The notes under the pieces are model-generated. The model had not been told where the DNA came from. It searched no databases and worked only from the letters and a program-made list of their open reading frames with translations. DNA of 64,000 bases from the NCBI GenBank assembly GCA_963701295.1, contig OY969585.1, positions 3,488,001 through 3,552,000 of the forward strand. Reading direction: 5' to 3'. The position numbers and the translations under genes are program-made. Each line of letters begins with the position of its first letter. Positions within the stretch are counted from its first letter, which is position 1. This stretch comes from Ignavibacteriota bacterium (lineage in GTDB: Bacteria; Bacteroidota; Ignavibacteria; UBA10030). Shown in pieces: positions 35,396 through 58,282 of the stretch.

Positions 35396-37188
35396 CTAAT
35401 CCTCTTCGGTTGTGTTCGAGACGACTTCTTCGAGAGTGGTACTTCCCTCTTTCATTCTCTCCATCCCCGATCGTCGCAATGACCACATTCCGTCCTTTAT
35501 TGCTTGATCACGGATAGCATTCTCGTCTACTTTATCGCCTGCATTCAAAATAATATCCTTAATTGGCTTAGTAAAGTATAAAGCCTCATGAATTGCAGCG
35601 CGTCCCTTATATCCGCCGCTACATTTTTCACATCCGACTGCTGTATAAAATGTATGGGTAGAGATATCTTCATCGGTAAGACCGAATTTCAAGAGGTCTT
35701 TCTTTTCACTATTATCCATCGGTTTCTTGCATACATTGCAAAGCGTGCGGATAAGTCGCTGGGCGACAATAACATTGATTGCATATGCAAGCAGGAATGG
35801 TTCAATACCCATTTTGAACAAACGCGCAATTGCACTGGGGGCATCATTTGTATGCAATGTTGAAAAAACCAAATGGCCTGTATTTGCCATCTTAATGGCC
35901 GTTTCTGCGGTTATCTTATCTCGCATTTCACCAACAAGCACAATGTCAGGATCGTGACGCAGGATTCCACGGATCGCCTCGTCAAATCCCATCTTAGGAC
36001 CAATTTTCAGCTGACGCGCTCCTTTGACGATATATTCTACCGGGTCTTCGATCGTCAACACATTCACAGTGGGATCAATAACCTGATACAACGCTGCAAT
36101 CAGTGTAGTTGATTTACCGGATCCAGTCGGACCTGTAAGAATGATAATCCCCTGAGGTTTATTAATGGCTTTATAAAAGAATTGACGTGCCGGTCCCTGT
36201 AACCCTAATTTTTCTAAATCGGTGATAACTTTGCGGTCATCCAATACGCGGATAACAACGCTCTCAAACTTATGTTTGAATTCCGTAGTTACGATTGGCA
36301 TGATTGAAACACGGAACCGGAGTTGATGCCCGTCAATAACGCGTTGTATGAATCCATCTTGAGTCATTTCACGCTCAAACCGATCTACATTCTTCGTACG
36401 ATCCTTGATCACCGCGAGCACTGCCTCAGGAACTGTGTTATCTTGAATGTGCCAGACTTGCAGATCGCCGTCCATGCGAAATAAAAAGTTGGTTCGGTTA
36501 CCTTCCGACGCGACGACGTGAATGTCACTTGCACCCCGTCTCACTGCTTCAACCAAACACCCCTCGAACAGATTGACCAAAGCGCTCTTGCTGATTTCTG
36601 CTTCGAGAGCCTGTTCATCAAGTTGTTCATCTCCTCCGCCACCTTCTTCAACAGTGATTTTATTATCATCAAGAAGTTTTAGAAACTCGTTTTGGGCTGG
36701 TGCCACTTTATCCATTAACGACTGGAATTCTTTTAAGCGCACATAACAAATTTCATATTTCTTCACATTGAAACTGCGAGCCACAATAGGCAGATTGCGA
36801 TCAGTAGGATCCGCTGCTATAATGATGAGTTTATCCGGCTGGCGTTCATCAAATTTGAACGGCAACATTTTTGATTGGATCATCATTTCGCGCTGCTGGT
36901 CTGAAAGCTGATCGACATATTTCTTTGTAAAAGCGATCCGTGCATCATCAACTTTTTCATCATCCTAAGAAATACTTCGCGGAAAGCATAAAGATTTGCC
37001 ACTTCGCGGAATACCGCATCGTGATCTGCTCCAAATTCTGTTACAAGGATCTGCCCAAGATTTTTTCGGTTTTTCTTATTTTCATCGGAATCCTTCATCT
37101 TGAGGGACTTCTCAAGCGTTTCAAAGTCGATAATCCCCTTTTTGAGGAGCGTGTAACCGATTTTATCAGTTATATCTATTTCGGCCAT
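35396..37188 (-). CDS. pilB: PilB/GspE assembly ATPase; frameshift near 36965
   Basis: MshEN-like N-terminus in ORF 36883..37188 plus ASDIH, GPTGSGKS, TLHTND and Zn CxxC motifs in ORF 35396..36886. Confidence 0.88.
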
Positions 37189-42725: not shown

Positions 42726-43083
42726 CGTCGCTCGTAGCCTTGCTGCTCGTTAACTCTAGTATATGAAAAGTACTTTTCTGTTCCACGAAGTTATTACTTG
42801 CGATTACGCACGTCTCGTTGTGCAGAAGACAAATTACTACCCTCGCCGTTGCTCGAAAATTACTCCTGCTGATCTATACTTTGTGGAAAACAAATTTCCC
42901 CTATATCCCTGATTATAAATCTATCTAGAATACATCAGAAGGTCTTTCGTTTTAAAACATTCTTCGTTAGTTATTCTATTACGCCACAGGCGTATCAGTC
43001 TTTGGCGGAGAAATATTTTTTGCTTAGACTCTTGACATTGAACACAGTACATGGTTAGACGACAAAAAAATACTTTACGGCTA

Positions 43084-54053: not shown

Positions 54054-54100
54054 AACATCCTCCTTTTTAAATAAAAAGTTAAAAAATTAGTATTTAGTTT

Positions 54101-54249
54101 ACATAATATACTAAACGAAACAAGTTCATGCTGATAACCAAATTAATTTATCCCCAACCAACGAGGTACCGAAAAGGTAATAATAAAAACGTCAACCCAC
54201 CATTAGCCATGAATTTTGCAGTGCGCTCTTACCGTCAGCTTGAGCGCCT
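54101..54249 (-). repeat. attC body (R'/L' arm deleted), split by IS110; its R'' box is displaced to 55606-55612
   Basis: gaaacaagttcat...gccatgaattttgc...ccgtcagcttgagcgcCT | ggttaggc. Confidence 0.8.
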
Positions 54250-54264
54250 GGTATGTTGAGTCTG

Positions 54265-54475
54265 TGACAATTATTTTCGTATCCTAATCCATTGGCAAAG
54301 TCATAGGAGAGATAGGAGCCGCTAGATATCTTCCCAGAAGAATATCGTTAACCAGATACATCTCCCTATGACTTTCCGCTTCTCAAGAATCTGAACAGTA
54401 CTTTGAGATCCATATTTCTTTCCCGTGGAATCCCGTATAACGCACGAGTCAAGATCACAAGGAAGCTGCCAATGT
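54265..54475 (+). ncRNA. Predicted bridge RNA of the IS110 element
   Basis: Outer stem ATTGGCA/TGCCAAT; stem AAAGTCATAGG/CCTATGACTTT enclosing GAGCCGCT and TAACCAG; second loop with ACAGTAC. Confidence 0.75.
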
Positions 54476-54513
54476 ATTTCTTCTCTTAACCTCTATTTCA
54501 AGGAGCTTTTGCT

Positions 54514-55537
54514 ATGACGATCTTAAAACAAACCATCGGTATCGATGTCTCTTACAAATCCTTCGATGCCAGATTCGGTACCATCAATACTCAACAAGAA
54601 ATAAACCTATCTGCTTCAAAATCCTTCAAAAACTCACTCGCAGGATTCAAACTCTTTCTGCGATGGCTCAAGAAATATATCCTCTCCGACGATATTCCTC
54701 TGGTCTTTGTCATGGAAGCTACTGGCGTCTATTACGAACACCTCTCTCACTTCCTCTTCCAGCAGGGGTATCAAGTTGCCGTTATCCTGCCCAATAAAAT
54801 TAGAAATTATGCCAAATCTCTCGAATCCAAATCCAAAACCGATCCTCATCGATGCCGCCGTCATTACTCGATTTGGCCTTGAACGACAACTCTCACTCTG
54901 GATGCCGCCTTCAGAGACTATAAAAACTCTGCGCGATCTCTGCAGGGAATACCACTGCCTCAAAGCTAACTGCACGCAAATTAAGAATCAACTCCACGCT
55001 CTCCAATCTTCCTTCAAGCCGCACAGAGAGTCCTTCAAACGCAAAACCCAACTCCTCAAATTCCTCGAACGGCAGGTCGCGCTTATTAAAAAGGAACTTC
55101 TCGCCTTAGTCAAGACCGAGCCTGATCTTCTGGCCCAGCGTCTCAAGAAAATCAAAACAGCTAAAGGCCTCGGCGATATGACCATCCTCACCGTCCTATC
55201 TGAAACTCGCTGCTTTGAGCTTGTCTCCAATCAAAAGCAGCTTACCAGCTACGCTGGTTTCGACATCGTCTTTAACGACTCTGGCTTGAAGAAAGGAAAA
55301 ACTTCTATCTCAAAAAAGGGCAATAAGTTTATCCGTAAAGCTCTCTTTATGCCTGCCATCTCTGCCTGCCGGGCTAATCCTGATCTCAAAGAACTCTATC
55401 AACGTCTTATTGCTAAAGGCAAAAATAAAAAACTTGCCATCGTTGCTGTCGCTCGTAAATTATTACTCCTGATCTCCACGCTCTGGAAATCTAATTCTGT
55501 TTACGTCCCCACTTATAAACCGATCCAACTCGTTTAA
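54514..55537 (+). CDS. IS110 transposase/bridge recombinase; 1-bp frameshift near 54847
   Basis: IGIDVS, VMEATGVY, KTDP-IDA, DSG, ISKKGNKFIRKALFM, AVARKLL. Confidence 0.92.
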
Positions 55538-55622
55538 TACTTACGCTGTCTCTTGTTCTTTGAAATATTTTTTACTCTAACTCTTGACTTTTACCACAGT
55601 ACCTGGTTAGGCAGCAATTGTA

Positions 55623-58282
55623 CTAACGAAGTAAAATGAGTTTTTTTGTTTCTTTAAATAAACCTGCATCCAAACAATAGAAATATATACCACTCGAGAA
55701 ATTCGATGCATCCCATTGTATAAGATGTTTCCCCGCTGTTTCTTCCCCATTTACTAAAATTGATACTAATCGTCCAAGAGGATCATAGATTTTCAACATT
55801 ACATACGATTGGGACGCAAGTTCGTAGCTGATGGTTGTTTCAGGATTAAAGGGATTGGGAAAATTATTGTTGAGTTTAAACTGTTTAGGGATTTCTTTAT
55901 GTTCTTCAACATCGGTCGTTTTTTGAAATGAAATCCAGTTGATGTTGAAACCTCCAGTGATAACCTCCAAACGGAGTACCTTATTCACACCCGATTTTAT
56001 TGTGATATTCGACAGGGAAACGGTCTTCCATTGCTGCCATCCGGAAGTATTAGGTATACTTATCGTGCCAAGATCGGTGCCGTCAAAAATAATTTTTAAT
56101 TTGCCACTTGCACTAACTGAAGCAATGCGCACGTCGAGCATTGATATATCAGCATTGACGTCAACCGTATAGGTCAACCATTCGCCATCACTAATCCAAC
56201 CGACATCATAGCCACCCCCTGTATCGCTGCATGTCTCTATATCCACGTCATCAGTTCTGTACTGACCGCCATTATTTCCGGCATCTGTATCAAAATAAGA
56301 AACACCGTTACTTCCGAGATCATAATTTTCAGCTTCTATTTTCCCGGGAATTTGAGCAGGCGTACCTGAATACGGACCGGTTTAATCAATGTTAATACTG
56401 AAGTTGTAATTGAAGGATAAGAGTAACCATCATTGTTCTTACCGGTAATACGATACATATACAAGGTGCTGCCTGATAAACTGGAATCGGTAAATACAGT
56501 ATCGTTGGCAATGGTACTTCCGATCGAATCAAATTTAGTATTGCCGTATCGTTCTATCAGGTAGCCGGTTTCATTAGAAATATTATTCCAGACAATCTTT
56601 GCCTGATTAAACGAAGGCGATGTCGCAGAAACGATAACCGGGGTTTCCATATTGTTTTGCATCTCTTTTGGGCCTATAGCCCAGGTGTAAGGCAGGAATG
56701 GATCTTCTTCATAATCGAACCAGTCGAAATCTGCAGGGTTAACATTTTTAAATCCATTCCCTGATGCGTACATTCCGATGAAAACACCGGTAAAGCCCCC
56801 GATGACTTCTGTGGACAGGTCTTTTGTTAATGCAGAACCTATCAGCTCGGCTGATTTTCCTTCCTGCTGTATCCAAAACTGGTACTGAAGGTCTGTTGCA
56901 CTGATCCGTAAGATGATATCGCCGTCAGGAATTTCTTTATAATTGAGTCCAACAACTTTATCCTGCAAATATTTCCGAAGCATTATCACTCGTTTCCCTG
57001 CAAACATAGTAATGAGAAGATCATAATGATTTTTATCGTCTCCACGAACCACCAAACCAACTTCTTCATTTTCAGCAGTTGGAATAAAACTAATGTTCGT
57101 TGATGCAACAAGATTAAATGCCGTTTGTCTGCGACCTATAAAAGCAGGCGAATCTTGTTCTTTAAAACTAATTTTTGAACCATTTAGCCTGAGAAATCCA
57201 GGTTTTGCACTAAGCGACCAATCTGCAGCATAAGGATTACGGATAAAATTCCAAGGCAGGCGCAATGCCACACTGTCGAAATTATCTCGGATGGAATCTT
57301 TTTCCCAGACATACTGAGGAAGATTTGGAGCGTTGTACACGGAATCTACGATTCCATTCGTTCCACCTTTAGGCCACCCATCGGAATTCCAGGCAATAGG
57401 TGCCAGAAATGTTTCACGACCTAAATGATGATAGTTGCCACCTTTGGGTCTGATACCGAGGCAAACCAACCACCAGCTACTATCTTGGAGTTGAACTAAA
57501 TCAGCGTGTCCAATAGCCTGAAAAGGATTATTGGGAACATCCTTATGCGAAATAACCGGGTTTATAGGACTTACAGTATAAGGTCCCCAAGGTGATTGAC
57601 TCCTCTGAATTACTTCCATGTGCTGATAACCCGTTCCTCCTTCAGCAGACATCAAATAATAGTATCCATTAATTTTATACAAATGTGAACCTTCGGGAGA
57701 TGCTCCACCAGTCCCTGAAGCTATCTTTGTCAATGGCTTAATGAAGTTGCCCGTTTTAGGATTCATTGTACCTAGCAAAAAACTACCATTATTGTCAGGA
57801 CTAACATAGTACATGCTATCGTTTTCGAACAATAGCGAAGGATCTACGTACCAGTAGTTTATCCAATGAGGATCGGACCAAGGACCAGCGGGATTTGTGG
57901 CAGTTACATAAAACTCCCCTTGAGAACCTTGCCCGCCATAGTTTGTGCAAATTACATAAAAAGTGCTGTCTTTATAGCGCAAAGTCGGGGCATATTGACC
58001 ACCCGAACCTGATGCACAACCCATCAAAGGATTGTTGCTTGCACGGGATAAAACATATCCAATCATTTTCCAATGCACCAAATCTTTACTGTGATATATT
58101 GGCAACCCGGGAAAATACTCAAAAGTAGATGTTATCAAATAATAGTCATCACCAACACGGCATATACTTGGATCAGGATTCATACCAGTAATTATTGGGT
58201 TTCGAAAGGTCGTTTGCGCAAGGACCTTAAATGTAAGGGCAATCAATCCTAAAAAAATTATTGTCGTTAATCTGTTCCACAT
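55623..58282 (-). CDS. GH43 xylosidase/arabinofuranosidase + FN3 + CBM6 + T9SS CTD; 1-bp frameshift near 56380
   Basis: NPDPSICRVGDDYY, PEGSH, LGRETFL, GGFTG; frame shift restores GPYSGTPAQIPGKIEAENYD...GWISDGEWL...NFPNPFNPETTI. Confidence 0.88.

Follow-up and report, generated by a model that had tools for sequence, protein, structure and literature searches.

An IS110-group insertion sequence with a predicted bridge RNA between the L'' and R'' boxes of an integron attC site

Introduction

How does an insertion sequence come to sit between the two boxes at one end of an integron attC site, and to which branch of the IS110 family does such an element belong? The question is raised by a locus in the genome of an Ignavibacteriota bacterium (G000; 3.64 Mb, single contig), within a 64,000-nucleotide stretch (G000:C1:3488001-3552000) that is called the window here. 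The initial annotation of this stretch described a full-length IS110 element whose IS621-like architecture, with an RNA upstream of the gene, had been reprogrammed to an integron repeat. IS1111-group elements in attC sites are reportedly the subject of Tetu & Holmes (2008) and Post & Hall (2009). The annotation gave attC targeting as known mainly from that group, and the literature that we found agrees: the attC-targeting family members described there are the IS1111-attC elements (PMC11187229, PMC11616780). In bridge systems, the joined ends of the element form a promoter, the loops of the RNA bind donor and target, and strands are exchanged at a CT core (PMC11208160, PMC11208158, PMC13626964).

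Results

The element at 54250-55604 (Table 1) is an insertion sequence of the IS110 group that separates the L'' box of an attC site from its R'' box. Counting one core, it spans 1,355 bp, made up of a 264-nt left end, the gene, and a 65-nt right end; in relatives the corresponding non-coding ends measure 256-289 and 15-95 nt. The R'' box that serves as right target sits just downstream of a cassette gene whose end is at 55623 on the minus strand. The quoted motifs, both junctions, and the 17-bp promoter spacer of the initial annotation were all confirmed. The predicted promoter, TTGACT-N17-TATGTT, is read across the joined ends, and its spacing of 17 recurs in 35/35 elements for which both ends are available. 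A promoter scan of the linear locus gave 5 sites (3.4 expected), an Rfam scan of 42-64 kb returned a single irrelevant match (E 0.77), and no subterminal inverted repeats were found in the window element, where end-to-end inverted matches reach at most 5 bp, the longest not being subterminal.

Table 1. Positions in the window of the element, its predicted RNA parts, the interrupted attC and a nearby remnant
Feature	Position	Strand	Basis or remark
3' remnant of a related element	42845..43058	+	ends ACAGTAC-AT-GGTTAGAC at an R''-like box
Left part of interrupted attC (variable region, L'' box CTTGAG)	54099..54247	+	nhmmer, model 37-151, E 8e-21
Left target (LT) TGAGCGC	54241..54247	+	motif check; 6-bp local stem possible with GCGCTC 54223-28
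CT core, left junction	54248..54249	+	same position in relatives
Left non-coding end, 264 nt	54250..54513	+	starts with right donor GGTAT; -10 box TATGTT 54252-57
Segment holding the target-loop guides GGAGCCGCT and TAACCAG	54298..54374	+	predicted fold -24.7 kcal/mol; stems covary; guides covary with flanks
Left target guide GGAGCCGCT	54315-23	+	
Right target guide TAACCAG	54349-55	+	
Predicted donor-binding loop	54378..54466	+	left guide ACAGTACT 54395-402, right guide ACGAG 54444-48
IS110 DEDD recombinase gene	54514..55537	+	PF01548 and PF02371 on two pieces, in different frames
Right end, 65 nt	55538..55602	+	-35 box TTGACT 55584-89; left donor ACAGTAC 55596-602
CT core (55603-04) and right target GGTTAGG (55605-11)	55603..55611	+	GGTTAGG is the attC R'' box

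From about 43 kb on, minus-strand genes of the window alternate with attC repeats; the plus strand is the bottom strand of attC, and thus the gene of the element runs opposite to the cassettes. Across the genome we counted 110 ends of the form CTTGAG-nnn-CT-GGTTAG, in several clusters, with a partner arm (YTAAC...AAG) within 260 bp of 80 of them, compared with 0.9% of random windows. The attC sites have a median length of 157 bp, and one of them folds canonically. The array that holds the element is headed by an intI gene (G000:3566721; 453 bits, above the curated cut-off), which is 23 kb away from the element. As a whole, the genome appears to carry a large chromosomal integron that is scattered and includes CALIN-like arrays. 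The insertion in the R''-L'' spacer held up, with the qualification that, in a 159-position profile made from 66 attC sites of the genome, the occupied attC covers positions 37-151 alone. Positions 1-36, the R'/L' arm, are missing, and R'' is unpaired in the joined empty site; among the 110 ends, up to 30 lack the partner arm.

Several further features of the integron were recorded. The attC ends, about 110 in number and 150-200 bp long, occur on both strands in several clusters, with one intI found over the cut-off. In some (e.g. G000 2821641, 2826461, 1156317; L048, L112, L150), a small palindrome (CCCGCC...GGCGGG, CCCTTCGGG) immediately to the left of the target either takes the place of L'' or comes before it. 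In L001 (1215-1290), three GCCTAA(C/T) boxes upstream of intI likely mark an attI region. The large, glycoside-hydrolase-like cassette gene at 55623-58282 (minus strand) appears split near 56300 into frames of 648 and 207 aa. Several cassettes share a similar C-terminal tail, which we take to be secretion-sorting-like.

The element is complete, as the initial annotation had it, with a transposase that is split by an extra base near 54848. This base falls between the third and fourth catalytic acidic residues and is absent from copy 2 (below) and from relatives, of which the intact ones are 333-361 aa long and carry GIDVS, MEATG, KTD..DA, and DSG motifs; the C-terminal DSG serine motif is kept in the window recombinase. 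The only solved relatives of the recombinase are ISCro4 (E 2e-31) and IS621 (E 4e-27). As its transposase is frameshifted, the window copy would be mobile only with enzyme supplied in trans, unless the frameshift is an assembly error. The defects of this copy may reflect either decay or such an error.

It is quite possible, though we lean the other way, that insertion in the clade is guide-directed and that the G at 54250, the extra base, and the poor match of the left guide are assembly or polishing artefacts, with the element being intact in living cells. The same G is seen in about 100 empty attC ends, the frameshift looks like a hybrid of two codon variants found in relatives (P-I-D and P-L-D), and a PilB-type ATPase in the window is likewise split yet whole in 4/4 same-genus genomes. 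Conversely, the nine 1,385-bp copies of another insertion sequence in the genome are identical and unbroken, and the left flank of the window element agrees with the attC subtype of its upstream side. Decay of this element family in the genome is real in any case, given that copy 2 has a genuine internal deletion and mosaic halves. The split ATPase (PilB/GspE type, window 35396-37188, minus strand; about 600 aa, whole in four same-genus genomes) is broken near 36970.

The left end of the window element is predicted to fold into a two-loop RNA in which the bottom-strand guide comes first. When the left end was base-shuffled 20,000 times, TAACCAG arose in 1.8% of shuffles, ACAGTAC in 1.8%, and all three motifs together in 0.01%; a match of at least 6/8 to GAGCGCCT arose in 45%, so the 6/8 match of the left guide, taken by itself, is no evidence. 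Against its own flank this guide has three mismatches (positions 1, 6, and 7), and one base of the donor does not pair with the right donor guide. Support for the RNA comes from covariation, not from energy, since the fold of the whole left end was no better than shuffles (z -0.77). In 25 aligned RNAs, 97.2% of the cells of the stems were paired, compared with 41-51% in slid controls, with the structure derived from the same alignment on which pairing was scored; changes on both sides were seen in 22/35 pairs.

The left guide GGAGCCGCT spells exactly the attC subtype GAGCCGCT, which is present in 12 of 109 attC ends of the genome, where GAGCGCCT accounts for 57 and GAGTTGCT for 25. A scan of the genome with the target loop returned attC ends as 10 of its 11 best-scoring sites. 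As predicted from its letters, the target loop spells the attC L''-R'' spacer.

Relatives were found in 14/277 genomes of the order and, with a stricter cut-off, in 12/401 of the class. About 100 protein clusters are at least 78% identical to an intact relative, the donor-guide pattern occurs in at least 119 metagenomic stretches, and a single-protein search of genome contigs gave 6 loci, 5 of them already in the set. Rows without a recognisable donor guide or protein match were dropped as chance pattern matches. Among the matches listed, 115 elements were parsed, 106 of them non-redundant after 9 duplicates were dropped, and the 76 with well-aligned target loops were scored for guide-flank match; the ATGAG and ACAAG groups, whose target loops aligned poorly, were left out of the target-guide statistics. 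The ATGAG guide belongs to a Bacteroidota-like group of relatives with the donor CT-CATAT.

Scored with one representative per right-guide class, in a set in which kin are not independent and a left-junction pattern had preselected CT cores, left guides matched left flanks at 5.25/7 positions (24 classes; shuffled 2.39; 0/20,000) and right guides matched right flanks at 4.91/5 (11 classes; shuffled 2.48; 0/20,000). Leaving out two G588 loci did not change the left-guide score. TAACCAG is carried by 24 elements; where the right flank is known (12 elements), it is CT-GGTTA (10) or CT-GGATA (2), a flank seen in 0/21 elements with other guides. The right target guide of the initial annotation is thus backed by flank covariation, and its central inference is better supported by this covariation among relatives than by the single-copy matches on which it had been built.

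The donor side could be revised in the same way. A right donor guide pairs with its donor in 94/97 elements (CGAG/CTCG 70, TGAG/CTCA 21, CAAG/CTTG 3), from which we read the family donor as ACAGTAC-CT-CGTAT and ACGAG as the fourth guide. The initial annotation was right about ACAGTAC, the CT core, and the left donor guide (54395-401), and had missed ACGAG. Its CT-GGTAT is peculiar to the window copy, copy 2 and relatives having CT-CGTAT, and is one of the three non-pairing donors among the 97. The IS621 donor that it gave fits the bases A6, T7, C8, T9, T10, G11, A13, and T14 in PMC11208158.

Members of the TAACCAG clade keep one right guide and vary in the left, where position 1 is matched in 9/23 and position 7 strictly matched in 11/23. 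Compared with the attC profile, the left flanks of 25 clade members match up to the junction in 10 cases, elsewhere in 4, and not at all in 11; some clade sites are therefore attC-like only at their last 7-14 nt. Among 64 non-clade left flanks the sole profile match, L070, itself carries TAACCAG. Five of six other genomes with the clade have intI (on the same contig in three), as compared with 1/4 genomes with sister elements; in G012 the clade is present and intI was not found. Reprogramming to attC is supported as a clade-wide habit, not as a one-off in this copy. The sister elements (L016-L019, L025, L026, L030, L054, L073, L094, L111, L160-L167), which share the donor and have guides such as TTTGCGCCT/CGCAGAG, occupy short palindromic repeats.

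In a quick ML tree built from 85 proteins, the 13 TAACCAG rows, including the C-terminal piece from the window, fall within a 16-row clade (SH-aLRT 99) that is embedded among relatives sharing the donor and having other targets. The clade stands apart from IS5075, ISEc11, and three similar proteins (SH-aLRT 99; key supports 96-99), in a tree in which long branches meet, a relative at E 5e-48 takes the place of IS621, and IS5075 and ISEc11 stand in for the IS1111 branch, with ISKpn4, ISPa21, and ISPst6 not among its proteins. The phylogeny proposed in the initial annotation thus places the clade outside the IS1111 references. The described attC-targeters of the family being IS1111-attC elements (PMC11187229, PMC11616780), and the left-guide match of the window copy alone being at chance level, one could argue that the element belongs to that group, or that protein-only or chance targeting brought it to attC with incidental guide matches. 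We regard this as very improbable: the long non-coding end lies upstream (264 versus 65 nt) with no subterminal repeat, the bottom-strand guide comes first, as in IS110-type RNAs (PMC11187229), the tree separates the element from IS5075 and ISEc11, and guides follow targets across 24 classes. The window element therefore appears to be an IS621-type bridge element of the IS110 group, and the IS621-like reading of the initial annotation is borne out by RNA layout, core, donor, promoter, and tree.

A different question is whether guide pairing, if real, is sufficient. In ISPpu10, a 5' target stem-loop accompanies a rigid right and a permissive left guide (bioRxiv 10.64898/2026.03.19.712850), and at the window site a 6-bp stem overlaps the left target (p 0.03 versus shuffles), so that target DNA structure, either a folded attC bottom strand or a local hairpin, might be required as well. 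This seems unlikely to us. Such a stem beats shuffles at p<0.05 in only 3/23 attC-type targets (5 bp is reached in 10/23), no local stem is found at copy 2 or L110, and the window attC has no arm for a canonical fold, although loss of the arm may postdate the insertion. A general requirement for a local hairpin was not supported by the 3/23 count. Insertions into half sites and into the junctions of other elements suggest a linear readout of 11-14 bp.

The genomic copies and their flanks were mapped, as the initial annotation had proposed, and the 13 PF02371 matches in the genome all fall to the two copies or to an unrelated IS1111-like element. Copy 2 (G000:254489-255738, minus strand) shares the RNA of the window element and has CT-CGTATG at its left end; its 3' half is mosaic, and about 128 bp are deleted internally. 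Both of its flanks agree with the guides: the right flank is CT-GGTTAGG, and the left flank, GGTGCCG-CT, fits the left guide at 8/9 positions, though it is not an L'' box. At this left junction (G000:C1:255738) the flank resembles sequence beside an R' box, and the whole attC interior is missing; the junction may have arisen by an adjacent deletion under guide direction, or by recombination between two insertions. The remnant in the window (Table 1) is 79% identical over 215 nt to relative L012.

The unrelated IS1111-like element is present in nine identical 1,385-bp copies (e.g. 3556340-3557725, plus strand), with relatives at 2409942 and 2397651 (minus strand). It encodes a 333-aa protein that groups with an ISGsu4-family protein, apart from IS5075 and ISEc11, and it has 9-bp subterminal repeats and a downstream non-coding region. 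It has entered the same attC spacer at CTGG, a site overlapping that of the bridge element, and a candidate loop, CCTAAC-hairpin-CGCTGG, would offer CCTAAC and CGCTGG as candidate guides. Its copies lie in GCT-type attCs in 8/9 cases, as compared with 39/109 ends (p 0.001), and the corresponding element of G097 has the loop CGCCTGG and the site GAGCGCCTGG. In L010 and L110, the right junction of a bridge element shows it inserted directly into the left junction of the IS1111-like element, and the left flanks of L110 and L086 have an upstream TTGACTTTTTACATAAC end that suggests a third IS-like element at the L'' box. We tentatively propose, as an idea that may well prove wrong, that the L''-R'' spacer is a contested address for RNA-guided recombinases: two IS110-family lineages, unrelated and opposite in their RNA layouts, would have converged on the same four bases, where they stack into each other's junctions, tune their left guides to the attC subtypes of the host, and, in large chromosomal integrons, lock cassette excision in a reversible, RNA-programmed way.

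Discussion

We think it very likely that the window copy arrived at attC by IS621-type bridge recombination, guided by the RNA of its own left end. The position of the element, its motifs, the covariation of stems and of guides with flanks, and the clade are direct observations. IS621 is reported to tolerate mismatches poorly (PMC11208160), and for this reason the guide and donor mismatches of the window copy count against guided insertion.

By homology with IS621 we infer a cycle with its transcription, circles, catalysis, and effect on IntI. Excision would join the ends at CT and create the TTGACT-17-TATGTT promoter, from which the bridge RNA would be transcribed. The donor loop would then read ACAGTAC-CT-CG, and the target loop roughly NGAGC(G/C)N-CT-GGTTA on double-stranded DNA, for strand exchange at CT by the DEDD/serine recombinase. 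The right guide would be fixed on the conserved R'' side, while the left guide could drift with the attC subtype. Because of attC anatomy (PMC4889954), 1.35 kb between L'' and R'' would prevent folding of the attC until excision. The predicted circle junction was found in 0/188 loci, and no circle or empty-site joint was seen in 8 public runs, the contigs of which derive from relatives; 0/22 public runs cover half of the stretch, and none are from the own strain. In two of three RNA runs contigs extend over the segment of the bridge RNA, though transcription cannot be demonstrated from contigs.

These data describe one bridge-RNA scaffold that, with a constant donor, has been naturally retargeted across at least 24 right-guide classes, attC among them. 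The clade offers intact, naturally programmed enzymes for working out mismatch rules, with a fixed right and a drifting left guide. It may also be useful for asking how such insertions affect cassette shuffling, for which experimental evidence is limited (PMC11616780).

The chemistry is known; what appears to be new is attC as a natural target for the IS110 group, which would be the second branch to reach it. Within reach of our search, outside which lay figures, supplements, ISfinder, the 2008/2009 IS1111-attC papers, and most subscription journals, we found no paper on attC targeting by the IS110 group; the accessible texts tie attC to the IS1111 group only (including PMC11616780 and PMC12444791). 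The accessible text of PMC11208160 has attC in its references only, and attC is absent from the accessible text of the preprints searched, including bioRxiv 10.64898/2026.03.19.712850.

The closest known systems are IS621 and ISCro4/IS622 (PMC11208160, PMC11208158, PMC13626964; PDB 8wt6, 9t56). The window element shares with them DEDD and serine domains, the CT core, a long left end with target loop followed by donor loop, a -35 box in the right and a -10 box in the left end, the left donor ACAGTA(C/T), and a 7-nt right target guide that resembles an extended RTG. It differs in its distant protein, in the family donor CT-CGTAT with guide ACGAG, in its target, which is an integron attC instead of a REP sequence, in the frameshift of this copy, and in an MFE fold that closes both loops by an outer helix. 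With the IS1111-attC group (ISKpn4, ISPst6, ISPa21; PMC11187229) it has in common an RNA-guided IS110-family enzyme and one end of attC as target, but, as those elements are described, it has none of their subterminal inverted repeats, downstream RNA, and top-strand-first guides. ISPpu10, an IS110-group element of REP sequences (bioRxiv 10.64898/2026.03.19.712850), similarly combines a CT core, a rigid right and a permissive left guide, and a host repeat; its target class differs, and the 5' target stem-loop that it requires is not general in the clade. Finally, group IIC-attC introns (PMC3001079) are likewise mobile and specialised for attC, but they are retroelements that arrive there by unrelated chemistry.
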